A stretch of DNA of 64,000 nucleotides from Escherichia coli (GTDB taxonomy: Bacteria; Pseudomonadota; Gammaproteobacteria; Enterobacterales; Enterobacteriaceae): the NCBI RefSeq assembly GCF_044647545.1, contig NZ_CP172818.1; one strand, 5' to 3'. The notes below the pieces were generated by a model. The model was given only the letters and a program-made list of their open reading frames with translations, searched no databases and was not told the origin of the DNA. Positions 5,292-25,448 of this stretch are shown here, piece by piece. The translations under genes and the position numbers were made by a program. Numbering within the stretch: the stretch's first letter is position 1; each line of letters begins with the position of its first letter.

Positions 5292-5363
5292 GCGGGAAAA
5301 CTATTTCGCAACGTCGCGCTTGTGGCTAAAATAGCCGCCATTTTTCAGCTACTGGATAAGAAT

Positions 5364-7325
5364 GTGACCGTATCTTCTCATCGACTTGAACTGTTAAGCC
5401 CGGCACGCGATGCCGCCATTGCCCGCGAAGCTATTTTGCACGGTGCCGATGCTGTTTATATCGGCGGCCCTGGTTTTGGTGCCCGTCATAATGCCAGTAA
5501 TAGCCTGAAAGATATTGCCGAGCTGGTGCCGTTTGCCCATCGTTATGGTGCAAAAATTTTCGTCACGCTTAACACAATTTTGCATGATGATGAGCTGGAA
5601 CCCGCGCAACGGCTGATTACTGACCTCTACCAGACCGGCGTCGATGCGCTGATTGTTCAGGATATGGGGATTCTGGAACTTGATATTCCGCCGATTGAAC
5701 TGCACGCCAGTACGCAGTGCGATATTCGCACAGTAGAAAAAGCGAAGTTCCTCTCTGATGTTGGCTTTACGCAGATTGTGCTGGCGCGAGAGCTGAATCT
5801 TGAGCAGATCCGCGCGATTCACCAGGCCACGGACGCGACCATTGAATTCTTTATTCATGGCGCACTGTGCGTGGCCTATTCGGGTCAGTGCTACATTTCT
5901 CATGCGCAAACAGGGCGTAGCGCCAACCGTGGCGATTGCTCGCAGGCGTGCCGTTTGCCATACACATTGAAAGACGATCAGGGGCGGGTGGTTTCCTATG
6001 AAAAACATCTGCTGTCGATGAAAGATAACGATCAGACTGCCAACCTCGGCGCGCTGATTGATGCTGGCGTACGCTCCTTCAAGATTGAAGGGCGTTACAA
6101 AGATATGAGCTACGTGAAGAATATCACCGCCCATTATCGCCAGATGCTGGATGCCATTATTGAAGAACGTGGCGATCTGACGCGTGCTTCATCAGGTCGT
6201 ACTGAACATTTCTTTGTTCCATCGACGGAAAAGACTTTCCACCGTGGTAGCACAGATTATTTTGTGAATGCCCGTAAAGGCGATATTGGCGCGTTCGATT
6301 CGCCGAAATTTATCGGCCTGCCGGTGGGCGAAGTATTGAAAGTAGCGAAAGATCATATTGATGTTGCCGTTACCGAGCCACTGGCAAATGGCGATGGCCT
6401 GAACGTGATGATTAAACGTGAAGTCGTCGGTTTTCGTGCCAATACGGTCGAGAAAACCGGAGAAAATCAGTACCGCGTCTGGCCCAATGAAATGCCAGCA
6501 GATTTGCACAAAATTCGCCCGCATCACCCACTAAACCGTAATCTTGATCATAACTGGCAGCAGGCACTGACAAAAACCTCCAGCGAACGTCGGGTGGCGG
6601 TAGACATTGAACTGGGCGGCTGGCAGGAACAACTGATTCTGACCCTCACCAGTGAAGAGGGTGTCAGCATCACGCATACGCTGGACGGGCAGTTCGACGA
6701 AGCCAATAACGCCGAAAAAGCAATGAACAATCTAAAGGATGGTCTGGCAAAACTGGGGCAAACCATCTATTACGCCCGCGATGTGCAAATTAATTTGCCG
6801 GGTGCGCTGTTTGTACCAAACAGTCTGTTAAACCAGTTCCGCCGTGAAGCCGCCGACATGCTGGATGCTGCACGTCTTGCCGGTTACCAGCGGGGCAGCC
6901 GTAAACCGGTTGCTGATCCTGCGCCGGTTTATCCGCAAACGCATCTGAGTTTCCTCGCGAACGTATACAACCAGAAAGCGCGTGAATTTTATCATCGCTA
7001 TGGTGTGCAACTGATTGACGCGGCGTATGAGGCACATGAAGAGAAGGGCGAAGTCCCGGTGATGATCACCAAGCATTGTCTGCGCTTTGCCTTCAATCTG
7101 TGCCCGAAACAGGCGAAAGGCAATATCAAAAGCTGGAAGGCGACGCCAATGCAACTGGTTAACGGCGATGAAGTATTAACGCTAAAGTTTGATTGCCGCC
7201 CATGCGAGATGCACGTCATTGGCAAAATCAAAAATCACATACTGAAAATGCCGTTACCGGGAAGCGTAGTGGCATCCGTAAGTCCGGATGATCTGCTGAA
7301 AACATTGCCGAAGCGAAAAGGGTAA
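5364..7325 (+). CDS. ydcP: Peptidase-U32-family protein YdcP (RlhA, 23S rRNA 5-hydroxycytidine synthase)
   Basis: ORF 5322..7325; GTG start at 5364 would give the 653-aa length I recall. Start is uncertain by 14 codons. Confidence 0.8.
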   Translation: MTVSSHRLELLSPARDAAIAREAILHGADAVYIGGPGFGARHNASNSLKDIAELVPFAHRYGAKIFVTLNTILHDDELEPAQRLITDLYQTGVDALIVQDMGILELDIPPIELHASTQCDIRTVEKAKFLSDVGFTQIVLARELNLEQIRAIHQATDATIEFFIHGALCVAYSGQCYISHAQTGRSANRGDCSQACRLPYTLKDDQGRVVSYEKHLLSMKDNDQTANLGALIDAGVRSFKIEGRYKDMSYVKNITAHYRQMLDAIIEERGDLTRASSGRTEHFFVPSTEKTFHRGSTDYFVNARKGDIGAFDSPKFIGLPVGEVLKVAKDHIDVAVTEPLANGDGLNVMIKREVVGFRANTVEKTGENQYRVWPNEMPADLHKIRPHHPLNRNLDHNWQQALTKTSSERRVAVDIELGGWQEQLILTLTSEEGVSITHTLDGQFDEANNAEKAMNNLKDGLAKLGQTIYYARDVQINLPGALFVPNSLLNQFRREAADMLDAARLAGYQRGSRKPVADPAPVYPQTHLSFLANVYNQKAREFYHRYGVQLIDAAYEAHEEKGEVPVMITKHCLRFAFNLCPKQAKGNIKSWKATPMQLVNGDEVLTLKFDCRPCEMHVIGKIKNHILKMPLPGSVVASVSPDDLLKTLPKRKG

Positions 7326-7370
7326 AACGTCAGTTTTCGGGTTACTCACCACTCATCAAATCTGCATGAT

Positions 7371-7412
7371 ATTGCCTGGCGGGTAAGGCGTCATGCCGCA
7401 TCCGGCAACAAA
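7371..7412. repeat. REP-like palindromic element
   Basis: gcctggcgggtaaggcgtcatgccgcatccggca resembles REP units; lies between the convergent ydcP and yncJ. Confidence 0.5.
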
Positions 7413-7416
7413 TGAC

Positions 7417-7647
7417 TCAACGCTGTCCCGCTTCTGGTTTGCGCGATTTTTGCCAGTAAAAATGCTCGCGCAAACCTTCCGCCGACTCTTCCGCCACAGC
7501 ACGCAATTCATCGCTGTCCGCTTCATGACGCAGCTGATGATCCACATTCTTTACCCACATAAATTCATGTCCTTTGTGCCCTGCCATGAGTTGTCCTGAG
7601 AACAGTGCACACGTTAATAAGACAACCGATAACGCCTTCGAAAACAT
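7417..7647 (-). CDS. yncJ: Small secreted protein YncJ
   Basis: 76-aa ORF with N-terminal signal peptide MFSKALSVVLLTCALFSGQLMA. Confidence 0.8.
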   Translation of the reverse strand: MFSKALSVVLLTCALFSGQLMAGHKGHEFMWVKNVDHQLRHEADSDELRAVAEESAEGLREHFYWQKSRKPEAGQR

Positions 7648-7868
7648 CCCGCCACCTTTTTCTAACCTTTTGCCGCTATGATGCCAATCGTTTCTTGAGG
7701 TTATTATTCAGTTTTGCAAATTAGCGCAAAGAAATTCTGGAATCTTCCTTCCTGATTTTGCATTGCATTCTGCCGTTGCGGCGATTTAGTGCTATTTTCG
7801 AGCAAATTACACACGGAGGTAAACACTAATGTTTACTTTGTTGATATACTCAGCGGCAGGGAGGCGAT

Positions 7869-8045
7869 GTGAAACAAAGCGAGTTCAGACGTTGGCTCGA
7901 ATCTCAGGGCGTCGATGTAGCGAATGGCAGCAACCATTTAAAACTGAGGTTTCATGGGAGGCGCAGTGTCATGCCGCGTCACCCCTGCGATGAGATTAAA
8001 GAACCATTGCGTAAAGCAATCCTGAAACAACTCGGTTTGAGTTAA
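7869..8045 (+). CDS. hicA: HicA mRNA-interferase toxin (type II TA)
   Basis: Hand-translated 58-aa GTG-start ORF (absent from the track): MKQSEFRRWLESQGVDVANGSNHLKLRFHGRRSVMPRHPCDEIKEPLRKAILKQLGLS; directly upstream of hicB. Confidence 0.85.
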   Translation: MKQSEFRRWLESQGVDVANGSNHLKLRFHGRRSVMPRHPCDEIKEPLRKAILKQLGLS

Positions 8046-8069
8046 TCGCCAATTAAAAAGGTTAATGAC

Positions 8070-8507
<438 letters not shown>

Positions 8508-8585
8508 TTACAGTTAACGAAAAGTTGTCATTTTTAACAACTGATATAGACTGCCGAATCATCTGCACATAATTACGATTCGATA

Positions 8586-9992
8586 ATGAAAAAATACCAG
8601 CAGCTTGCAGAACAATTACGCGAGCAGATTGCGTCGGGTATCTGGCAACCCGGCGATCGTTTGCCTTCGTTGCGTGACCAGGTGGCGCTTTCTGGCATGA
8701 GCTTTATGACCGTGAGCCATGCCTATCAGTTGCTCGAAAGTCAGGGATATATTATCGCGCGACCGCAGTCGGGTTATTACGTTGCGCCACAGGCAATAAA
8801 AATGCCGAAAGCGCCAGTCATTCCAGTCACTCGAGATGAAGCAGTCGATATCAACACCTATATTTTTGATATGTTGCAGGCCAGTCGCGATCCGTCGGTA
8901 GTTCCGTTTGCCTCGGCCTTTCCCGACCCGCGACTTTTCCCCCTCCAACAACTAAACCGCTCGCTGGCGCAGGTAAGCAAAACCGCCACGGCGATGAGCG
9001 TGATTGAAAACTTACCGCCAGGAAACGCAGAACTGCGTCAGGCTATTGCTCGTCGCTATGCCTTACAGGGCATCACCATTTCTCCTGATGAAATTGTCAT
9101 TACTGCCGGGGCGTTAGAGGCATTAAACCTCAGTTTGCAAGCGGTAACTGAACCGGGCGATTGGGTGATAGTAGAGAATCCTTGTTTCTACGGCGCGTTG
9201 CAGGCGCTGGAGCGGTTACGGCTGAAGGCGTTATCGGTGGCGACGGACGTTAAAGAAGGGATAGATCTTCAGGCGCTGGAACTGGCGTTGCAGGAGTATC
9301 CGGTGAAAGCGTGCTGGCTGATGACTAATAGCCAGAATCCACTCGGATTTACCTTAACACCGCAAAAAAAAGCACAACTGGTGGCGTTGCTCAATCAGTA
9401 CAACGTAACGCTGATTGAAGATGACGTATACAGCGAACTTTATTTTGGACGGGAAAAACCGCTGCCTGCGAAAGCGTGGGATCGCCACGATGGCGTTTTG
9501 CATTGCTCTTCGTTTTCGAAATGTCTGGTGCCTGGTTTTCGTATTGGTTGGGTCGCCGCCGGAAAACATGCACGTAAAATTCAACGCTTGCAGTTGATGA
9601 GTACGCTTTCCACCAGCTCACCGATGCAGCTTGCGCTGGTGGATTACCTTTCCACGCGCCGATACGACGCCCATCTTCGTCGCCTGCGTCGCCAGCTTGC
9701 GGAACGTAAACAACGTGCCTGGCAGGCACTGCTGCGTTATCTGCCTGCGGAAGTGAAAATTCATCATAATGACAGCGGTTATTTTCTCTGGCTGGAGCTC
9801 CCCGCGCCGTTAGATGCGGGCGAATTAAGCCTGGCAGCACTGACGCATCATATCAGTATTGCGCCGGGTAAAATGTTTTCTACCGGTGAAAACTGGTCAC
9901 GTTTTTTCCGTTTTAATACCGCGTGGCAGTGGGGAGAACGTGAAGAACAGGCGGTTAAACAATTAGGCACACTTATTCAAGAACGGCTGTAA
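8586..9992 (+). CDS. ydcR: MocR/GntR-family regulator with aminotransferase-like domain, YdcR
   Basis: 468 aa; N-terminal GntR HTH; PLP-lysine context SFSKCLVPGFRIGW. Confidence 0.9.
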   Translation: MKKYQQLAEQLREQIASGIWQPGDRLPSLRDQVALSGMSFMTVSHAYQLLESQGYIIARPQSGYYVAPQAIKMPKAPVIPVTRDEAVDINTYIFDMLQASRDPSVVPFASAFPDPRLFPLQQLNRSLAQVSKTATAMSVIENLPPGNAELRQAIARRYALQGITISPDEIVITAGALEALNLSLQAVTEPGDWVIVENPCFYGALQALERLRLKALSVATDVKEGIDLQALELALQEYPVKACWLMTNSQNPLGFTLTPQKKAQLVALLNQYNVTLIEDDVYSELYFGREKPLPAKAWDRHDGVLHCSSFSKCLVPGFRIGWVAAGKHARKIQRLQLMSTLSTSSPMQLALVDYLSTRRYDAHLRRLRRQLAERKQRAWQALLRYLPAEVKIHHNDSGYFLWLELPAPLDAGELSLAALTHHISIAPGKMFSTGENWSRFFRFNTAWQWGEREEQAVKQLGTLIQERL

Positions 9993-10236
9993 TAGCGTTT
10001 AATTTAATTCCTCTCAGGTTGGGTAATATGAATTTCGAATAGCAGTCATATTTCCTAACTCCTTGTCTATACTCCAGAAGATAACCTTACAGACGGCATA
10101 ATGCGCGGTAGCTCACAACCTGATTAAATTTTCTCAGGGGCGAAGGTGTGCCTGCAAGCCGCCGTCTATGGTTAAACAAGGAGATATTTTTACGGCACGG
10201 CGGCTGAACAATTAATTACGACAGGAGTAAGACTTT

Positions 10237-11382
10237 ATGAGCAAGACATTTGCCCGCAGCAGCCTGTGTGCGCTTACCATGACATTAATGACCGCCCACG
10301 CCGCCGAACCTCCCACAAATTTAGATAAACCGGAAGGGCGACTGGATATTATCGCCTGGCCGGGATACATCGAACGCGGACAAACTGATAAACAATACGA
10401 CTGGGTAACGCAATTCGAAAAAGAGACAGGCTGCGCGGTGAATGTGAAAACCGCCGCGACTTCCGATGAAATGGTCAGTCTGATGACCAAAGGGGGTTAC
10501 GATCTGGTTACGGCATCCGGCGATGCCTCGCTGCGCCTGATTATGGGCAAACGCGTGCAGCCGATTAATACCGCATTGATTCCCAACTGGAAAGCGCTCG
10601 ATCCGCGCGTGGTTAAAGGCGACTGGTTTAACGTTGGCGGCAAAGTTTACGGCACACCTTACCAATGGGGGCCGAACCTGCTGATGTACAACACTAAAAC
10701 CTTCCCGACGCCGCCGAATAGCTGGCAAGTGGTTTTTGTTGAGCAGAATCTGCCGGACGGCAAGAGCAATAAAGGCCGCGTTCAGGCTTATGATGGCCCT
10801 ATCTACATTGCGGACGCTGCGTTGTTCGTTAAAGCCACTCAGCCACAGTTGGGCATCAGCGATCCGTATCAACTCACCGAAGAACAGTACCAGGCGGTGC
10901 TGAAAGTGCTGCGCGATCAACATAGTTTGATCCATCGCTACTGGCATGACACTACCGTGCAAATGAGCGATTTCAAAAACGAGGGTGTGGTTGCTTCCAG
11001 TGCATGGCCCTATCAGGCCAACGCCCTGAAAGCCGAAGGCCAGCCTGTCGCTACCGTTTTCCCGAAGGAGGGCGTTACCGGTTGGGCTGATACCACCATG
11101 CTACATAGCGAAGCGAAACATCCGGTTTGCGCCTACAAATGGATGAACTGGTCATTAACCCCAAAAGTGCAGGGCGATGTAGCGGCCTGGTTTGGCTCGC
11201 TACCGGTAGTGCCGCAAGGGTGTAAAGCCAGTCCGTTATTAGGCGAGAAAGGTTGTGAAACAAACGGTTTTAACTATTTCGATAAAATCGCCTTCTGGAA
11301 AACGCCTATCGCAGAAGGGGGCAAGTTTGTTCCCTACAGTCGCTGGACGCAGGATTACATTGCCATTATGGGTGGTCGCTAA
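10237..11382 (+). CDS. ydcS: ABC transporter periplasmic substrate-binding protein YdcS (polyamine-type)
   Basis: 381 aa; signal peptide ending AHA; first gene of ydcSTUV. Confidence 0.9.
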   Translation: MSKTFARSSLCALTMTLMTAHAAEPPTNLDKPEGRLDIIAWPGYIERGQTDKQYDWVTQFEKETGCAVNVKTAATSDEMVSLMTKGGYDLVTASGDASLRLIMGKRVQPINTALIPNWKALDPRVVKGDWFNVGGKVYGTPYQWGPNLLMYNTKTFPTPPNSWQVVFVEQNLPDGKSNKGRVQAYDGPIYIADAALFVKATQPQLGISDPYQLTEEQYQAVLKVLRDQHSLIHRYWHDTTVQMSDFKNEGVVASSAWPYQANALKAEGQPVATVFPKEGVTGWADTTMLHSEAKHPVCAYKWMNWSLTPKVQGDVAAWFGSLPVVPQGCKASPLLGEKGCETNGFNYFDKIAFWKTPIAEGGKFVPYSRWTQDYIAIMGGR

Positions 11383-11399
11383 CTTCGCTGGGGTGTTTT

Positions 11400-12413
11400 A
11401 TGACGTACGCAGTGGAGTTTGACAACGTCTCACGGTTGTACGGTGACGTGCGCGCAGTAGATGGCGTCAGTATTGCGATAAAAGATGGTGAGTTCTTCTC
11501 TATGCTGGGGCCGTCCGGTTCCGGCAAAACCACCTGCCTGCGCCTGATTGCTGGATTCGAACAACTTTCCGGCGGGGCTATCTCTATCTTTGGTAAACCC
11601 GCCAGCAATCTGCCACCGTGGGAGCGGGACGTGAATACTGTCTTCCAGGACTACGCGCTATTTCCGCATATGTCGATTCTTGACAACGTCGCCTACGGGC
11701 TGATGGTCAAAGGCGTGGATAAAAAACAGCGGCATGCGATGGCGCAAGAGGCGCTGGAGAAAGTGGCGCTGGGTTTTGTTCAGCAACGTAAACCGTCACA
11801 ACTTTCTGGTGGTCAGCGCCAGCGGGTTGCTATCGCCAGAGCATTGGTGAATGAACCGCGTGTGTTGTTGCTGGATGAACCGCTCGGCGCACTGGATCTC
11901 AAATTGCGTGAGCAGATGCAACTGGAACTGAAAAAGCTGCAACAGTCTCTCGGTATCACTTTTATCTTCGTTACCCACGATCAGGGCGAAGCGTTATCGA
12001 TGTCCGATCGTGTGGCGGTTTTCAATAATGGACGCATTGAGCAGGTCGATTCCCCGCGTGATCTCTATATGCGCCCGCGCACGCCGTTTGTTGCCGGGTT
12101 CGTCGGGACATCGAATGTTTTTGATGCACTGATGGCAGACAAACTTTGTGGCATGACGGGAAGCTTCGCCCTGCGACCGGAACATATCCGCTTCAACATC
12201 CCCGGCGAAGTGCAGGCTAATGGCACGATCCAGGCGGTGCAGTATCAGGGCGCGGCGACCCGTTTTGAACTGAGACTGAACGGCGGTGAAAAACTGCTGG
12301 TGAGTCAGGCCAATATGACAGGCGAAGAACTGCCCGCCACACTCACGCCCGGAAAACAGGTGATGGTTTCCTGGTCGCGTGATGTGATGGTACCGCTGGT
12401 TGAGGAGAGGTGA
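11400..12413 (+). CDS. ydcT: ABC transporter ATP-binding protein YdcT
   Basis: 337 aa; Walker A GPSGSGKTT, ABC signature LSGGQRQRVAIARAL, Walker B LLLDEP. Confidence 0.93.
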   Translation: MTYAVEFDNVSRLYGDVRAVDGVSIAIKDGEFFSMLGPSGSGKTTCLRLIAGFEQLSGGAISIFGKPASNLPPWERDVNTVFQDYALFPHMSILDNVAYGLMVKGVDKKQRHAMAQEALEKVALGFVQQRKPSQLSGGQRQRVAIARALVNEPRVLLLDEPLGALDLKLREQMQLELKKLQQSLGITFIFVTHDQGEALSMSDRVAVFNNGRIEQVDSPRDLYMRPRTPFVAGFVGTSNVFDALMADKLCGMTGSFALRPEHIRFNIPGEVQANGTIQAVQYQGAATRFELRLNGGEKLLVSQANMTGEELPATLTPGKQVMVSWSRDVMVPLVEER

Positions 12414-13355
12414 ATGGCGATGAACGTATTGCAATCACCTTCACATCCAGGTCTGGGTAAGGTGTCCGGTTTCTTCTGGCGTAATCCGGGGCTGGGGCTG
12501 TTTTTACTGCTGCTTGGCCCGCTAATGTGGTTTGGCATTGTCTATTTCGGCTCGCTGCTGACACTGTTATGGCAGGGATTTTATACCTTTGACGATTTCA
12601 CCATGTCGGTAACGCCGGAACTGACGCTGGCCAATATCCGTGCGCTGTTTAATCCGGCGAATTACGACATCATTCTCCGCACGCTGATTATGGCTGTGGC
12701 AGTCACTATCGCCAGCGCCATTCTGGCTTTTCCAATGGCGTGGTATATGGCGCGCTATACCAGCGGGAAAATGAAAGCGTTTTTTTATATCGCGGTAATG
12801 TTGCCGATGTGGGCGAGCTACATTGTGAAAGCCTATGCCTGGACGTTATTGCTTGCAAAAGATGGCGTGGCGCAGTGGTTTTTACAACATCTGGGGCTGG
12901 AACCACTGCTGACGGCGTTCCTTACATTACCTGCGGTGGGCGGCAATACGCTGTCAACTTCCGGGCTGGGGCGCTTTCTGGTGTTTCTCTATATCTGGCT
13001 GCCGTTCATGATCCTGCCCGTGCAGGCGGCGCTTGAGCGTTTGCCGCCGTCATTGTTGCAGGCGTCAGCTGATCTCGGCGCACGTCCACGACAAACCTTT
13101 CGCTATGTGGTGCTGCCGCTGGCGATCCCGGGTATTGCTGCTGGCTCTATCTTTACCTTCTCACTCACACTGGGCGATTTTATCGTCCCGCAGCTGGTTG
13201 GCCCGCCAGGATATTTTATCGGCAATATGGTTTATTCCCAGCAGGGGGCGATTGGCAATATGCCGATGGCGGCGGCATTCACCCTGGTGCCGATTGTTCT
13301 CATCGCACTGTACCTGGCGTTCGTGAAACGTCTGGGAGCGTTCGATGCACTCTGA
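12414..13355 (+). CDS. ydcU: ABC transporter permease YdcU
   Basis: 313-aa hydrophobic ORF; start adjoins ydcT stop. Confidence 0.9.
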
Positions 13356-14139
13356 ACGCGCACCGTTTTTCCTCAAACTGGCGGCCTGGGGCGGCGTGGT
13401 TTTCCTACATTTTCCCATCCTGATTATCGCCGCCTATGCGTTTAACACTGAAGATGCGGCGTTTAGTTTTCCACCGCAAGGCCTGACGCTGCGCTGGTTT
13501 AGCGTGGCAGCACAGCGTAGTGATATTCTTGATGCCGTGACACTGTCACTTAAAGTGGCAGCGCTGGCGACATTAATCGCGCTGGTGTTAGGGACGCTGG
13601 CCGCTGCCGCGCTGTGGCGACGAGACTTTTTCGGCAAAAACGCCATTTCGCTGTTACTGCTGCTGCCCATTGCGCTGCCGGGCATTGTCACTGGTCTGGC
13701 GCTATTAACCGCCTTTAAAACCATCAATCTGGAGCCGGGATTTTTCACCATCGTGGTCGGCCATGCGACTTTTTGCGTAGTGGTGGTGTTTAACAATGTC
13801 ATCGCCCGTTTTCGCCGCACCTCGTGGAGTCTGGTTGAGGCGTCAATGGATCTTGGGGCCAATGGCTGGCAAACCTTCCGCTACGTAGTGTTGCCGAATC
13901 TCAGTTCGGCGCTACTGGCAGGAGGAATGCTGGCGTTTGCCTTGTCGTTCGATGAAATCATCGTGACGACCTTTACGGCAGGTCATGAACGAACGTTACC
14001 GTTGTGGTTGCTCAATCAGCTTGGGCGACCGCGTGATGTACCGGTAACCAACGTGGTGGCACTGCTGGTTATGTTGGTAACAACCTTGCCGATCCTGGGA
14101 GCCTGGTGGCTAACCCGCGAAGGCGACAATGGTCAATAA
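13345..14139 (+). CDS. ydcV: ABC transporter permease YdcV
   Basis: 264-aa hydrophobic ORF overlapping ydcU by 11 nt. Confidence 0.9.
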
Positions 14140-14160
14140 CCACTGATACAGGAATATGCT

Positions 14161-15585
14161 ATGCAACATAAGTTACTGATTAACGGAGAACTGGTTAGCG
14201 GCGAAGGGGAAAAACAGCCTGTCTATAATCCGGCAACGGGGGACGTTTTACTAGAGATTGCCGAGGCATCCGCAGAGCAGGTGGATGCTGCTGTTCGCGC
14301 GGCAGATGCAGCATTTGCCGAATGGGGGCAAACCACGCCGAAAGCGCGTGCGGAATGCCTGCTGAAACTGGCTGATGTTATCGAAGAAAATGGTCAGGTT
14401 TTTGCCGAACTGGAGTCCCGTAACTGTGGCAAACCGCTGCATAGTGCGTTCAATGATGAAATTCCGGCGATTGTCGATGTCTTTCGCTTTTTCGCCGGAG
14501 CAGCTCGCTGCCTGAATGGTCTGGCGGCAGGTGAATATCTTGAAGGTCATACTTCGATGATCCGTCGCGATCCGTTGGGAGTCGTGGCTTCTATCGCACC
14601 GTGGAATTATCCGCTGATGATGGCAGCGTGGAAACTGGCTCCGGCGCTGGCGGCAGGGAACTGCGTAGTGCTCAAACCATCAGAAATTACCCCGCTGACC
14701 GCGTTGAAGTTGGCAGAGCTGGCGAAAGATATCTTCCCGGCAGGCGTGATTAACGTACTGTTTGGCAGAGGCAAAACGGTGGGCGATCCGCTGACCGGAC
14801 ATCCCAAAGTGCGGATGGTGTCGCTGACGGGCTCTATCGCCACTGGGGAACACATCATCAGCCATACCGCGCCGTCCATTAAGCGTACTCATATGGAACT
14901 TGGTGGCAAAGCGCCAGTGATTGTTTTTGATGATGCGGATATTGAAGCTGTGGTCGAAGGTGTACGTACTTTTGGCTATTACAATGCCGGACAGGATTGT
15001 ACTGCGGCTTGTCGGCTCTACGCGCAAAAAGGCATTTACGATACGCTGGTGGAAAAACTCGGTGCTGCGGTGGCAACGTTAAAATCGGGTTCGCCGGATG
15101 ACGAGTCTACGGAGCTTGGACCTTTAAGCTCGCTGGCGCATCTCGAACGCGTCAGCAAGGCGGTAGAAGAGGCGAAAGCGACAGGGCACATCAAAGTGAT
15201 CACTGGCGGTGAAAAGCGCAAGGGTAATGGCTATTACTATGCGCCGACGCTGCTGGCTGGCGCATTACAGGACGATGCCATCGTGCAAAAAGAGGTATTT
15301 GGTCCGGTAGTGAGTGTTACGCTCTTCGACAACGAAGAACAGGTGGTGAATTGGGCAAATGACAGCCAGTACGGACTTGCATCCTCGGTATGGACGAAAG
15401 ATGTGGGCAGGGCGCATCGCGTCAGCGCGCGGCTGCAATATGGTTGTACCTGGGTCAATACCCATTTCATGCTGGTAAGTGAAATGCCGCACGGTGGGCA
15501 GAAACTTTCTGGTTACGGCAAGGATATGTCACTTTATGGGCTGGAGGATTACACCGTCGTCCGCCACGTCATGGTTAAACATTAA
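14161..15585 (+). CDS. patD: Gamma-aminobutyraldehyde dehydrogenase PatD (YdcW/Prr)
   Basis: 474 aa; aldehyde-dehydrogenase motifs MELGGKAP and catalytic Cys region GQDCTAAC. Confidence 0.93.
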
Positions 15586-15632
15586 GGGTAATATTGCAGA
15601 TCGTAAGAGTATGAGATGATCTTGCGTACTGT

Positions 15633-15663
15633 CAGAGCACTGATTTCTCTGACAGTACGTGCT
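15633..15663. terminator. Intergenic hairpin between convergent patD and yncL
   Basis: Inverted repeat gtactgtcagag ... ctctgacagtac. Confidence 0.4.
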
Positions 15664-15681
15664 GCGTGCAAAATCACTACA

Positions 15682-15777
15682 TCAAATAAACCAGCCAAAT
15701 CTCATAGAGATAAGAGTAAACAAACCAACAGCAGCAAAGACATTTATCAGTACTACAGTTCTACTGGAAACATTCAT
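15682..15777 (-). CDS. yncL: Small membrane protein YncL (31 aa)
   Basis: Hand-translated minus-strand ORF MNVSSRTVVLINVFAAVGLFTLISMRFGWFI; below the track's length cut-off. Confidence 0.7.
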   Translation of the reverse strand: MNVSSRTVVLINVFAAVGLFTLISMRFGWFI

Positions 15778-15971
15778 TTTTGCCACCTTTTATCATTGCC
15801 CCTATGTGTATAGTACGGGTTAAGAAAATCCGCAATAATACTCATTCTGAAGATGGATAAGGACAAGTTGCTGTTTGATGATTTTTTCTCAAACTGGTGA
15901 AAAAATTTGATGCACGTCAAAAAATGACGCATATTTGCGCGCGTTTTATTCATCTGGCTGGACGCCCGTAC

Positions 15972-16145
15972 ATGTCTCTCTATCAACACATGCTTGTTTT
16001 TTATGCGGTTATGGCAGCAATCGCATTTCTTATCACCTGGTTTCTTTCTCACGATAAGAAACGCATCCGTTTCTTAAGCGCCTTTCTGGTGGGGGCAACA
16101 TGGCCGATGAGTTTCCCGGTGGCGCTGTTGTTTTCACTGTTTTAA
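15972..16145 (+). CDS. ortT: Orphan membrane toxin OrtT (YdcX), 57 aa
   Basis: Track ORF 15897..16145; internal start MSLYQHMLVFYAVMAAIAFLITWFLSHDKKRIRFLSAFLVGATWPMSFPVALLFSLF gives 57 aa with two TM helices. Confidence 0.8.
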   Translation: MSLYQHMLVFYAVMAAIAFLITWFLSHDKKRIRFLSAFLVGATWPMSFPVALLFSLF

Positions 16146-16230
16146 ATCTTACTCACTGGCTTGACGGCACCACGCAGACTTATATCATTTGGATGAATCG
16201 ATAAATTTCACAAGTGGCTAAGGAGAAAGT

Positions 16231-16464
16231 ATGTCGCATCTGGATGAAGTCATCGCGCGCGTGGATGCCGCGATTGAAGAGAGCGTCATTGCCCATATGA
16301 ACGAATTATTAATCGCCCTGAGCGATGACGCGGAGTTAAGTCGGGAAGATCGCTACACCCAGCAGCAGCGTTTGCGCACAGCGATCGCCCATCACGGTCG
16401 CAAGCATAAAGAAGATATGGAAGCGCGCCATGAACAGTTAACCAAAGGCGGCACCATCCTGTGA
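16231..16464 (+). CDS. ydcY: Uncharacterised protein YdcY
   Basis: 77-aa ORF. Confidence 0.8.
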   Translation: MSHLDEVIARVDAAIEESVIAHMNELLIALSDDAELSREDRYTQQQRLRTAIAHHGRKHKEDMEARHEQLTKGGTIL

Positions 16465-16914
16465 TTAAAATGAGCGTCTGGCTACCAACCAGGCGCCAAC
16501 CACAAGTAAAATTGCGCCACAAATTGGGCCGAACAACGCCCGTAGTGGTACGCCATGACTGCGAAAGATATCCAGCACCAGACCGCCAATCAGCTGGCTG
16601 GCGACCAGTACTGCAATAGTTGTCGCCGCTCCCACATTCTGATATCCGCTGATACTGGCGAAGACAAAAAACGATCCCAGCAAGCCAGGTATAAGTGTCC
16701 ACCAGCGCACGCTGGACACCAGTTCGCCAAACCCCGCCATACCTTGTTTAAACCATAAAATAGAAACAAAGAGCACAATCCCCACCAGTGAGTTCAGCAA
16801 CATGGCGATGAGAATGGTAGAGGAGGTCTGGGTGATGCGCACCATCAGCGTGTTCTGGACTACCAGACCAATTCCGGCGGCAATCAAAAAAGCAAGGGTG
16901 AGCGACTGATTCAT
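16465..16914 (-). CDS. ydcZ: Inner-membrane protein YdcZ (DUF606)
   Basis: 149-aa hydrophobic ORF; overlaps the mnaT stop by 4 nt. Confidence 0.85.
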   Translation of the reverse strand: MNQSLTLAFLIAAGIGLVVQNTLMVRITQTSSTILIAMLLNSLVGIVLFVSILWFKQGMAGFGELVSSVRWWTLIPGLLGSFFVFASISGYQNVGAATTIAVLVASQLIGGLVLDIFRSHGVPLRALFGPICGAILLVVGAWLVARRSF

Positions 16915-24830: not shown

Positions 24831-25448
24831 ATGATTAAGGTGTATGGCGTACCCGGATGGGGCTCTACAATCAGTGAGCTGATGCTAACACTGGCTGATA
24901 TTCCTTATCAGTTCTTTGATGTCAGTGGTTTTGACCACGAGGGAACTTCACGCGAGTTATTGAAAACCCTGAACCCGTTGTGTCAGATTCCGACACTGGC
25001 GCTGGAAAATGACGAGATTATGACGGAGACAGCGGCGATTGCATTGATGGTTCTCGATCGTCGCCCGGACCTTGCGCCACCGGTTGGGCGCGCCGAACGT
25101 CAGCAGTTTCAACGGCTATTGGTCTGGCTGGTTGCTAATGTCTATCCAACATTCACTTTCGCCGATTACCCTGAGCGTTGGGCTCCTGACGCACCTGAAC
25201 AGTTAAAGAAGAATGTTATTGAATATCGAAAATCGCTTTATATCTGGTTGAATTCGCAGCTCACTGCTGAACCTTATGCGTTTGGTGAGCAACTAACGCT
25301 GGTGGACTGTTATCTTTGCACTATGCGCACATGGGGGCCTGGGCATGAATGGTTTCAGGATAATGCCACGAATATCAGTGCGATTGCTGATGCTGTATGT
25401 CAGTTACCGAAATTACAAGAAGTATTAAAAAGGAATGAAATTATTTGA
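24831..25448 (+). CDS. yncG: Glutathione-S-transferase-like protein YncG
   Basis: 205-aa ORF. Confidence 0.85.
   Translation: MIKVYGVPGWGSTISELMLTLADIPYQFFDVSGFDHEGTSRELLKTLNPLCQIPTLALENDEIMTETAAIALMVLDRRPDLAPPVGRAERQQFQRLLVWLVANVYPTFTFADYPERWAPDAPEQLKKNVIEYRKSLYIWLNSQLTAEPYAFGEQLTLVDCYLCTMRTWGPGHEWFQDNATNISAIADAVCQLPKLQEVLKRNEII

Follow-up and report, generated by a model that had tools for sequence, protein, structure and literature searches.

YdcR and the ydcSTUV-patD operon of Escherichia coli: probably neighbours from separate circuits

In our reading, to which we would give a probability of about 0.7, ydcR and ydcSTUV-patD of Escherichia coli function as two separate units, and only in the Enterobacteriaceae do they lie side by side. 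YdcR most likely belongs to another circuit, that of alternative terminal oxidase genes, and its control of ydcSTUV-patD is not supported. The ydcSTUV-patD cassette is itself a real and ancient uptake-plus-oxidation operon.

The window, by which is meant the whole stretch of 64,000 nucleotides analysed, carries what is already well known as the E. coli ydcR / ydcSTUV-patD locus: several E. coli chromosomes match the 8.5-kb region at 100% identity, 5415 of the 5426 complete E. coli genomes contain it, and its genes have the same names in RefSeq. An ORF check of the window placed all six reading frames on the + strand, where the original prediction had them. ydcR (8586–9992) encodes a 468-aa MocR-type regulator and, as had been proposed from its translation, it joins a GntR winged helix-turn-helix (residues 3–66, E 1.1e-14) to a fold-type-I aminotransferase-like domain (Aminotran_1_2, residues 141–445, E 1.3e-33). 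After a spacer of 244 nt come ydcS (10237–11382), for a periplasmic binding protein of a distinct PotD/PotF-like subfamily that matches SBP_bac_8 and SBP_bac_1 and whose structure is solved (PDB 6NLP); ydcT (11400–12413), for an ABC ATPase (ABC_tran) with a TOBE domain (TOBE_2); ydcU (12414–13355) and ydcV (13345–14139), for PotB/PotH-like and PotC/PotI-like permeases that both match BPD_transp_1; and patD (14161–15585), for a gamma-aminobutyraldehyde dehydrogenase. Among curated models the best family matches of YdcT, YdcU and YdcV are PotA, PotB-H and PotC-I, with YdcT below the PotA cut-off, and PatD matches Aldedh (E 4.9e-168) and stands above the cut-off of the aminobutyraldehyde dehydrogenase model TIGR03374 (1039 bits vs 909.3). 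The near-zero gaps noted earlier from ydcS to patD hold good, with distances of 17, 0, −11 (an overlap) and 21 nt. A hairpin with a 13-bp stem (15625–15659), read from the sequence between the convergent patD and yncL, is the probable operon end; lacking a T-run, it escaped the terminator scan.

YdcR, its operator and its gene neighbours

The putative operator lies upstream of ydcR, on the + strand, as a conserved left half-site ATTACAGTT (8507–8515; family consensus ATAACAGTT), which begins on the final base of the hicB stop codon, and a right half-site AACTGATAT (8539–8547) inverted relative to it. When the window was scanned with a weight matrix from a model derived from 80 Enterobacteriaceae genomes, this pair received the top score of the whole 64 kb, 23.8 bits. 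The form [AT][AT]ACAG-N27/28-CTG[AT]T[AT] is conserved 5′ of ydcR in 67 of the 80 loci, and a variant with ATATCAG is present in 9 further ones. YdcR shifts a fragment of its own promoter from 50 nM in EMSA (Pfanzelt et al. 2022), and the operator is inside the region delimited by the primers for that fragment; the site bound would be the inverted repeat ATTACAGTT-N23-AACTGATAT (8507–8547). Two overlapping sigma-70-like promoters for ydcR, TTGTCA-16-TAGACT and TTAACA-17-AATCAT (8525–8562, + strand), are consensus matches only, in a number not above shuffled expectation, and since the operator overlaps both it suggests that ydcR is autoregulated through a site over its own promoter.

What keeps company with ydcR on its other side? 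In 70 of the 80 Enterobacteriaceae loci cioA-cioB-DUF2474, an operon for a cytochrome bd-type oxidase, is upstream of ydcR and divergent from it, and 13 loci, which come from several genera, have a spacer of just 147–177 bp between cioA and ydcR. The operator ATAACAG-N27-CTGWTAT is conserved upstream of both ydcR and cioA, and the layout of the shared spacer is CAGA(A/G)(A/G)CAG-N18-ATAACAGTT-N23-AACTG(A/T)TAT. The start of cioA is some 60 nt away from the direct pair; the strict pattern is present in 44 of 68 loci, and the other cioA loci printed have box 1 with a G-for-A variant. In most Enterobacteriaceae, YdcR would thus appear from the layout to bind, in addition to its own promoter, a direct repeat 5′ of the divergent cioAB-DUF2474. 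Upstream of E. coli ylaC there is a direct repeat, TAACAG-N18-TAACAG, with the same orientation as at cioA and at a similar distance, that scores 18.4 bits in the operator scan.

Outside the family the closest relative of YdcR, from Vibrio (55% identity), has the same arrangement, with cydA/cydB/DUF2474 divergent, and in another relative (49%) the next gene is FixG/CcoG-like; the neighbours of these nearest relatives are cytochrome bd or CcoG-like genes, with no amine genes among them. Suvorova & Rodionov (2016) predicted a YdcR regulon of cydAB, NapH/CcoG, CcoN or ylaC, and neither ydcS nor patD is in the regulon they list. The cioAB linkage is an independent reproduction of that prediction.

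The ydcR-ydcS spacer and control of the cassette

On the cassette side the next genes on the strand of ydcR are ydcSTUV-patD in 65 Enterobacteriaceae loci and patD directly in 12, an adjacency in 77 of 80 that outlasts independent deletions of the transporter and could reflect function instead of inherited gene order. This persistence of adjacency and shared orientation speaks for regarding YdcR as the dedicated regulator of ydcSTUV-patD, forming like GabR an external aldimine with putrescine or GABA and then activating the ydcS promoter. In its favour are also the PLP binding shown experimentally for YdcR (Pfanzelt et al. 2022), the precedent of GabR for amine–PLP sensing, and R442, which in the alignment matches the arginine that binds the carboxylate in aminotransferases and whose retention would suit GABA over putrescine. 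However, no YdcR operator was detected in the spacer (9993–10236, + strand), where scores reach only background level (6.3 bits for the best half-site, −1.2 for the pair), and among the 77 upstream regions of ydcS or patD the conserved operator is at none and no score exceeds the shuffled controls (medians 5.5 for half-site and −2.4 for pair, maximum pair 7.9; shuffled 99th percentiles 13.4 and 9.7). A loose match in this strain, TTACAG-N27-CTGATT (10087–10125), has a left half that is Escherichia-specific and a right half that is CTGAAT in K-12, and the weight-matrix score for the pair is −1.2 bits. The whole 244-bp spacer served as the EMSA negative control of Pfanzelt et al. (2022), in one lane with no effector reported, so that effector-dependent binding there is still conceivable. 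Characterised MocR regulators are usually divergent from their target gene, as ydcR is from cioAB, whereas ydcR and ydcS are in tandem. Furthermore, YdcR fails the GabR model by a wide score (125 bits vs a cut-off of 600), which counts against the proposed sensing of an amine–PLP adduct, its relatives outside the family adjoin oxidase genes, and the cassette is elsewhere accompanied by LysR or IclR regulators. A dedicated role for YdcR is, on this evidence, highly improbable, and the earlier view of it as the cassette's regulator is not sustained.

A looser coupling would need no site at the ydcS promoter: in Escherichia, transcripts from a YdcR-controlled ydcR promoter might run on into ydcSTUV-patD. 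No intrinsic terminator-like structure was detected on the + strand of 9993–10236, so read-through from an autoregulated ydcR promoter could couple both units; the spacers of Citrobacter, Klebsiella and Pluralibacter-like genomes, 30–100 nt longer, start with GC-rich hairpins followed by T-runs that E. coli does not have. Pfanzelt et al. (2022) moreover place the bound promoter ‘upstream of a putrescine transporter’. Yet in the papers, and in the scheme in the SI of Pfanzelt et al., ydcR forms one unit and ydcSTUV-patD another, each with its own promoter; conservation of the ydcS promoter blocks is strong, and a promoter of its own explains the large RpoS and CRP dependence of the operon. Such coupling, which we consider unlikely, would anyway be a lineage-specific by-product and not a conserved design.

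Under the preferred reading of two separate units, ydcSTUV-patD would be transcribed from its own promoter within the 244-nt spacer, and a phylogenetic footprint of the ydcS upstream region in 65 genomes is consistent with this. On the + strand it shows a conserved block GTAATATGAATTTCGAATAG (10023–10042; CATAGGAAAT..CATA in other genera), where a LysR-type activator, Nac for instance, may bind; a sigma-S-type −10 element CTATACT (10067–10073; C at −13, then TATACT) within the invariant block TTGTCTATACTCC (10063–10075); a conserved dyad TGCGC-N6-TCACA (10102–10117) that is CRP-like and from which we infer a CRP site; and a conserved 5′-UTR hairpin (10157–10205) with AAGGAG in its loop and a perfect, GC-rich 9-bp stem, AGCCGCCGT / ACGGCGGCT. 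Published work has ydcS, ydcT and ydcU strongly RpoS-dependent, ydcS and ydcU with fold-changes of 7–12 in cAMP-CRP and RpoS comparisons, and ydcSTUV-patD as one operon of the Ntr/Nac and RpoS regulons, with its Nac dependence also published.

The transporter and its aldehyde dehydrogenase

The five genes ydcS, ydcT, ydcU, ydcV and patD are together in Rahnella, Agrobacterium, Thioclava and Deinococcus, with YdcS identities of 60–82%. The regulator beside them is LysR in Rahnella, Agrobacterium vitis and Thioclava, IclR in Deinococcus, and in none of the four a MocR-type protein. The LysR-linked cassettes (on pAt in A. vitis) have the same order and overlapping permease genes, with the LysR gene immediately 5′ on the same strand in the position of the Enterobacteriaceae ydcR; that of Rahnella has an extra, second aminobutyraldehyde dehydrogenase gene. 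The original prediction of one regulated uptake-and-oxidation module is thereby upheld for a cassette that is tightly packed, treated as one operon and conserved in four distant taxa, but regulation by YdcR is not supported. Nor does the cassette alone convert an amine to an acid: direct oxidation of an amine is beyond an aldehyde dehydrogenase, and the aminotransferase gene patA is neither in this locus nor in the cassettes of the other taxa examined. PatD is the same enzyme as in the PatA–PatD (YgjG–YdcW) aminotransferase pathway for putrescine breakdown; it passes the equivalog model, and its product from 4-aminobutanal is GABA.

YdcSTUV resembles PotFGHI (putrescine) and PotABCD (spermidine-preferential) in having a binding protein, a TOBE-type ATPase and two permeases, though the pot operons have no aldehyde dehydrogenase gene. 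YdcS keeps the PotF fold, its aromatic box (PotF W37, Y40, W244 and position 276) and D278, but identity to PotF and PotD is just ~25%, the curated PotF and PotD models are failed (61.5 vs 636 and 46 vs 582) with only a ‘putative YdcS’ model passed, and 7 extra residues are inserted behind the WxGY motif. Across five YdcS orthologues, which represent four phyla or classes, PotF D39 (PotD E36) is an invariant Gly, and E185 and D247 are in 4 of 5 Tyr and Gln, respectively; three acidic residues with which PotF binds putrescine are missing from the YdcS pocket. The literature support found for putrescine transport by YdcSTUV is citation of a transporter database and no demonstration, and putrescine as the ligand of YdcS is unproven.

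Is it then an importer at all? Reviews credit purified YdcS with polymerase activity for short-chain poly-3-hydroxybutyrate (cPHB) in the periplasm and a ydcS mutant with ~30% less outer-membrane cPHB, the RefSeq K-12 label is ‘binding protein/polyhydroxybutyrate synthase’, and ydcS and ydcV, both RpoS-regulated, are reviewed as required for plate transformation; in this reading YdcS and YdcV would form a route by which double-stranded DNA is taken up in natural transformation on plates. Against either activity in place of amine import, YdcS shares its fold with the binding proteins PotF, PotD and SpuE (E 1e-10 to 1e-18), has a structure of its own in 6NLP and is not an alpha/beta-hydrolase in fold, the ATPase and permeases are nearest the PotA/B/C families, and the cross-phylum linkage of five genes including an aminobutyraldehyde dehydrogenase argues for a small nitrogenous substrate. 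A non-importer role seems very doubtful, and the PHB and DNA activities may be secondary. The operon would rather supply, under starvation, a PotABCD-like ABC importer for a nitrogen-containing compound, with PatD turning a derived aminoaldehyde into an omega-amino acid, which with putrescine as substrate would be GABA, and the amine-to-aldehyde step probably provided from elsewhere, by PatA.

MocR relatives and the likely signal of YdcR

GabR of Bacillus subtilis, also of the MocR type, activates gabTD and detects GABA through the external aldimine that it forms with PLP. It has the same two-domain design as YdcR, with a PLP lysine (K312, in SFSK, for YdcR), and it likewise regulates itself through repeats spaced by about three helical turns. 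Apart from the failed model, YdcR differs in the sequence of its half-site, ATAACAG, and in being divergent from a bd-type oxidase operon and not from an aminotransferase gene. Further parallels are offered by Pseudomonas aeruginosa MpaR (PA4132), a MocR-type protein that responds to cyanide, activates ccoN4, nirA and the operon it belongs to, and is placed by Suvorova & Rodionov (2016) in one orthologous group with E. coli b1439; this orthology is taken from their paper and from similarity of motif and context. The motif ATCTGAT, required for MpaR-dependent ccoN4 expression, has its core CTGAT in common with the YdcR half-site CTG(A/T)TAT, 30 residues separate PLP lysine and tyrosine in both proteins (K314/Y284 in MpaR; K312/Y282, the latter in DDVY, in YdcR), and both have alternative terminal-oxidase genes and themselves as targets. 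The targets differ, being ccoN4/ccoG/nirA in Pseudomonas and cioAB plus ylaC (predicted) in enterobacteria, and no oxidase target is present in this E. coli window.

YdcR may therefore be seen, if its place in the ‘YdcR’ orthologous group with MpaR is accepted, as a PLP-binding MocR-type regulator whose signal is tied to respiration, for example a cyanide–PLP adduct as proposed for MpaR; from this analogy a respiration-linked signal is more likely than an imported amine. Escherichia has lost cioAB, with yncJ-hicAB in its place, and YdcR would retain here just its autoregulatory site, plus the distant site of cioA-like architecture at ylaC, the loss having left ydcR beside an unrelated operon.

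Gene order around ydcR

The six plus-strand ORFs of 8586-15585 have exactly the coordinates of the original prediction: ydcR (8586-9992; GntR and Aminotran_1_2 domains), ydcS (10237-11382; solute-binding protein), ydcT (11400-12413; ABC ATPase with a TOBE domain), ydcU (12414-13355) and ydcV (13345-14139), both encoding permeases, and patD (14161-15585; aldehyde dehydrogenase), all as assigned with Pfam. The spacing is 244 nt between ydcR and ydcS, and 17, 0, −11 and 21 nt from ydcS through patD. The locus is already annotated, studied and known; its DNA is 100% identical in several E. coli chromosomes and it was found, with the same gene names annotated, in 5415 of 5426 complete E. coli genomes. 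On its 5′ side are rlhA, yncJ (minus strand) and the hicAB toxin-antitoxin pair, and on its 3′ side yncL (minus strand) and ortT, with a hairpin of 13-bp perfect stem and no T-run (15625-15659) between the convergent patD and yncL that may be a bidirectional transcript end. No terminator was found 3′ of ydcR in E. coli, so that read-through may occur in Escherichia; hairpin-plus-T-run structures are present there in several other genera.

Is this one regulated module? The original prediction had YdcR, as plausible sensor of an amine-PLP adduct, controlling ydcSTUV-patD. That control is contradicted by the distribution of the YdcR operator, by a published EMSA and by reciprocal synteny, and the best-supported reading is of two independent units. 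The first would be an autoregulated MocR-type regulator gene with cioAB (lost in Escherichia) and ylaC as its conserved targets, and the second, ydcSTUV-patD, a starvation-induced import-and-oxidation operon with a promoter of its own.

A YdcR scan with one genome per species yielded 80 Enterobacteriaceae loci (81-96% identity). The genes ydcSTUV-patD lie 3′ of ydcR in 65 of them; another 12 have no transporter genes and carry patD as the next gene after ydcR, the remaining three being uninformative on this point. The 12 transporter-less loci (L025, L026, L027, L029, L043, L057, L070, L074, L075, L076, L079 and L080) are deletion derivatives from at least five separate lineages; Salmonella enterica diarizonae and the Enterobacter cloacae complex are among those that independently lost ydcSTUV. 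Parts of the ydcS promoter and leader persist in them 5′ of patD, which indicates that the dehydrogenase was kept when the transporter was lost. In three of them (L057, L076 and L080, from Superficieibacter and a relative) TGGCACGCTTGCTGCA, a good match to a sigma-54-type promoter, stands about 60 nt 5′ of patD, a hint that nitrogen controls patD directly in these loci.

The 5′ side tells of another association. The cytochrome bd-type oxidase genes cioA-cioB-DUF2474 are divergent from ydcR in 70 of the 80 loci, and in 13, from several genera, the common cioA-ydcR spacer is just 147-177 bp. Escherichia is without the cioAB operon and has yncJ-hicAB at its position, such that 7417-8515 of the window comprises yncJ, hicA, hicB and the start of the operator; no trace of cioA could be detected in the window. 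Some Citrobacter loci, too, have hicB homologues, inserted there in the cioA-ydcR interval. The nearest YdcR relative beyond the family is a Vibrio protein (55% identity) with cydA-cydB-DUF2474 as divergent partner, and another (49%) has a FixG/CcoG-like gene 3′ of it; neither ydcS nor patD is nearby among the outside relatives examined, those of the distant P0122, P0125, P0126 and P0127 having contexts that are uninformative or contigs that are very short.

The YdcR operator and where it occurs

Alignment of the short cioA-ydcR spacers revealed three invariant boxes, CAGA(A/G)(A/G)CAG, ATAACAGTT and AACTG(A/T)TAT, separated by 18 and 23 nt respectively; a default-stringency repeat search of both spacers had missed this operator, its arms being too short. 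An inverted pair of half-sites, with hexamer cores 27 nt apart, is directly 5′ of ydcR in 67 of the 80 loci, and a palindromic variant, ATATCAG...CTGATAT, is at ydcR in nine further loci. On the cioA side, a direct pair is found some 60 nt from the start codon (a strict pattern matches 44 of 68 loci), other direct pairs among the loci listed having a G-for-A variant in box 1, and the site is duplicated where insertions part cioA from ydcR. In the window the inverted pair, made up of ATTACAGTT (8507-8515) and AACTGATAT (8539-8547), overlaps the sole promoter-like matches 5′ of ydcR. Its first base is the final base of the hicB stop codon, a 1-base overlap which points to the hicAB insertion having taken away the first box together with cioAB; only the autoregulatory site is left in the window, the first operator box being gone. 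Elsewhere in the genome, the region upstream of ylaC in E. coli K-12 (5326-5353 of locus L002) has TAACAG-N18-TAACAG, a repeat that matches the cioA site in architecture and orientation and whose distance, 74-101 nt, is comparable. A transcriptome paper names ylaC as one of the little-characterised genes that hypothiocyanite notably affects.

A position weight matrix built from 38 distinct half-sites was then used for scanning. The ydcR promoter of the window gave a best half-site of 16.5 bits and a best pair, inverted, of 23.8 bits, the top paired match across the entire 64 kb, and the K-12 ylaC upstream region gave 14.6 and 18.4 bits, the latter for a direct pair. For the ydcR-ydcS spacer of the window the corresponding values are 6.3 and −1.2 bits. 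Over 77 spacers upstream of ydcS or patD the median half-site is 5.5 bits and the median pair −2.4 bits (maximum 7.9), to be set beside shuffled spacers with medians of 5.3 and −3.6 bits and 99th percentiles of 13.4 and 9.7 bits. The second-best paired match in the window, a direct repeat with a 25-nt register (25371-25406; 20.3 bits), falls within the 3′ end of an ORF (24831-25448) and is probably due to chance. A regular-expression match in the ydcR-ydcS spacer, TTACAG-N27-CTGATT (10087-10125), was considered as a second YdcR site and rejected: its left half is Escherichia-specific, its right half is CTGAAT in K-12, what is conserved there is a different block, TCACAACCTG, and its pair score is at background.

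The scan agrees with a published experiment. In the gel shift of Pfanzelt et al. (2022) YdcR shifted a ydcR promoter fragment from 50 nM, and the negative control was the complete 244-bp ydcR-ydcS spacer; by primer matching these fragments correspond to approximately 8471-8673 and to 9993-10237 of the window. No effector was reported for the negative lane, which leaves room for effector-dependent binding of YdcR to the spacer.

The ydcS control region and the import-and-oxidation cassette

What the spacer does contain emerges from a footprint of 65 aligned ydcR-ydcS spacers. An upstream block (10023-10042) is conserved; it is followed by invariant TTGTCTATACTCC (10063-10075), containing CTATACT, which with its C at −13 is a textbook −10 element for sigma-S, and by a CRP-like TGCGC-N6-TCACA (10102-10117). 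Further 3′ there is a leader hairpin with a 9-bp GC-rich stem and AAGGAG in its loop (10157-10205), conserved across the 65 genomes, and 3′ of it, within 10157-10230, the ydcS Shine-Dalgarno sequence GACAGGAGTAA. These features fit the published dependence on RpoS, cAMP-CRP and Nac, the matching of particular blocks to particular factors being putative; for carbon-limited K-12, comparisons for cAMP-CRP and for RpoS list ydcS and ydcU with 7-12 as fold-changes. Position 10066, one base 5′ of the sigma-S-type −10 element, is A in K-12 MG1655 but T in the window strain and in essentially all of the 65 other genomes (TTGACTATACT versus TTGTCTATACT), possibly a K-12-specific variant of the ydcS promoter. 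A conserved ACGGCACGGC(G/T)GC block was discarded as a sigma-54 promoter, its −12 GC reading GA in E. coli. An Rfam scan of 7300-16600 returned no known RNA family, which sets the conserved 5′-UTR hairpin apart from described riboswitches and leaders. Its loop AAGGAG and GACAGGAGTAA are two GGA motifs arranged as is typical for CsrA sites; ydcSTUV-patD has been listed as a differentially expressed cluster in a CsrA study.

The uptake-and-oxidation part of the original prediction fares better than the link to YdcR. Searching annotated plasmids and chromids with YdcS (tblastn) identified orthologues of 60-82% identity, and cassettes from Rahnella, Agrobacterium vitis, Thioclava and Deinococcus encode the same binding protein, ATPase, two permeases and gamma-aminobutyraldehyde dehydrogenase. 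The pairing of transporter and dehydrogenase is thus ancient and functional; that of ydcR with the cassette is confined to Enterobacteriaceae. None of the four distant cassettes has a MocR neighbour: in Rahnella, A. vitis and Thioclava a LysR-family gene is directly 5′ and on the cassette's strand, and in Deinococcus the neighbouring regulator is a divergent IclR gene. Neither an aminotransferase nor an amine oxidase gene is present in the four.

PatD, known as the gamma-aminobutyraldehyde dehydrogenase of the PatA-PatD putrescine pathway, scores 1039 bits with its own equivalog model (TIGR03374, ABALDH, PatD/YdcW; cut-off 909.3). For the transporter, the listing as a putrescine importer is by citation to a transporter database, and no measurement of polyamine binding by YdcS or of uptake by YdcSTUV was found in the accessible literature; YdcS has also been reported to have periplasmic cPHB polymerase activity and, with YdcV, to be needed for plate transformation. 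YdcS, whose own crystal structure is 6NLP, matches SBP_bac_8 and SBP_bac_1 and has the Type II periplasmic binding-protein fold of the PotD/PotF cluster. Its closest solved relatives are SpuE, PotF, SpuD and PotD (E 1.9e-18 to 5e-10), yet it is only about 25% identical to PotF, PotD and SpuE and scores far below the PotF (61.5 versus 636 bits) and PotD (46.1 versus 582) equivalog cut-offs of NCBIfam, passing only NF041888 (‘putative ... YdcS’). In PotF an acidic clamp of D39, E185, D247 and D278 serves both polyamine amino groups. YdcS keeps the aromatic box but, of the clamp, D285 (PotF D278) alone, and it has a 7-residue insertion; in the alignment with four distant orthologues, where the match to PotF (about 25% identity) is less certain in the C-terminal half and at positions 185 and 247 than at 39, D39 is replaced by Gly in five of five YdcS sequences, E185 by Tyr in four of five and D247 by Gln in four of five. 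A ligand other than a simple diamine is therefore plausible on sequence grounds. The YdcS family (the window protein and those of L097-L100, the distant loci) also has a conserved cysteine pair, GCK...GC(E/A/T/S)xNG, and a C-terminal extension absent from PotF and PotD; together these suggest an additional, disulfide-stabilised element close to the C-terminus. Could the compound imported by the cassette be an aminoaldehyde (4-aminobutanal / delta1-pyrroline) and not putrescine? The missing aminotransferase and the absence of an acidic clamp for a second amino group prompt the thought, but it is an unlikely one.

YdcR among MocR regulators

YdcR has both halves of a MocR protein, a GntR winged helix-turn-helix (residues 3-66; E 1.1e-14, 54.3 bits against a Pfam cut-off of 27) and a fold-type-I aminotransferase-like domain (Aminotran_1_2, residues 141-445). 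Among proteins of solved structure the LysN-type aminotransferases come closest (E 2.4e-43), with GabR and PdxR-like regulators next; the PLP lysine is K312, whose SFSK motif pairs with that of LysN in the alignment, Y282 is also present, and PLP binding was found by intact-protein MS (Pfanzelt et al. 2022). YdcR reaches the curated NCBIfam cut-off of no characterised MocR model, whether GabR (NF052285; 125.2 bits versus 600), PdxR (268.6 versus 320), PtsJ (125.3 versus 573) or EhuR (185 versus 480). Nor is its setting that of GabR, with divergent gabT/gabD as target and a GabR-type direct repeat, the conserved divergent partner of ydcR being cioA; no aminotransferase gene is beside ydcR in the window or in the 80 related loci.

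What, then, is YdcR for? Suvorova and Rodionov (2016) have ‘YdcR’ as the largest MocR orthologous group, of 65 regulators, with predicted regulons of cydAB-like genes, NapH/CcoG and CcoN; those for E. coli, Salmonella and Erwinia are of ylaC only, and ydcS and patD are in none. The synteny with cioAB, and an operator at ydcR, cioA and ylaC, give YdcR the group's character of a link to oxidase-related genes or ylaC with a common operator. By review, direct activation of srfN by Salmonella YdcR has been reported. The table of Suvorova and Rodionov also places in the group P. aeruginosa PA4132 (MpaR), a cyanide-responsive activator of ccoN4 for which sensing of a PLP-cyanide adduct has been proposed from genetics and docking, and whose ATCTGAT motif, required for MpaR-dependent ccoN4 expression, has the CTGAT core of the YdcR half-site. 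Among 50%-cluster representatives, those with Lys/Tyr numbering like K314/Y284 were tried as MpaR candidates and set aside, the contexts of P0135 and P0175 being unrelated and MocR paralogues intermixing at around 40% identity.

From the published orthology assignment, the motif core and the oxidase context in common comes a tentative proposal, to which we give about one chance in three: YdcR may be the enterobacterial counterpart of MpaR, orphaned in E. coli, and may use its PLP to detect cyanide or some comparable respiratory poison. It would switch on the cyanide-insensitive bd-type oxidase cioAB plus ylaC, and in E. coli the oxidase would have been lost but the sensor retained, along with its autoregulatory operator and the site at ylaC.

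The neighbourhood tempts one to assign to YdcR the control of a ‘putrescine’ transporter, a phrasing found in at least one experimental study. As a corrective, that transporter label derives from homology, to proteins whose pockets that of YdcS is systematically unlike, and the comparative evidence points to a respiratory-oxidase and ylaC regulon for YdcR; ydcR and ylaC (or cioAB) promoters with cyanide-type signals, not ydcS and polyamines, are accordingly what suits tests of YdcR. If the counterpart proposal is true, the textbook organism carries an orphaned cyanide-response regulator that adjoins ydcSTUV-patD by chance.
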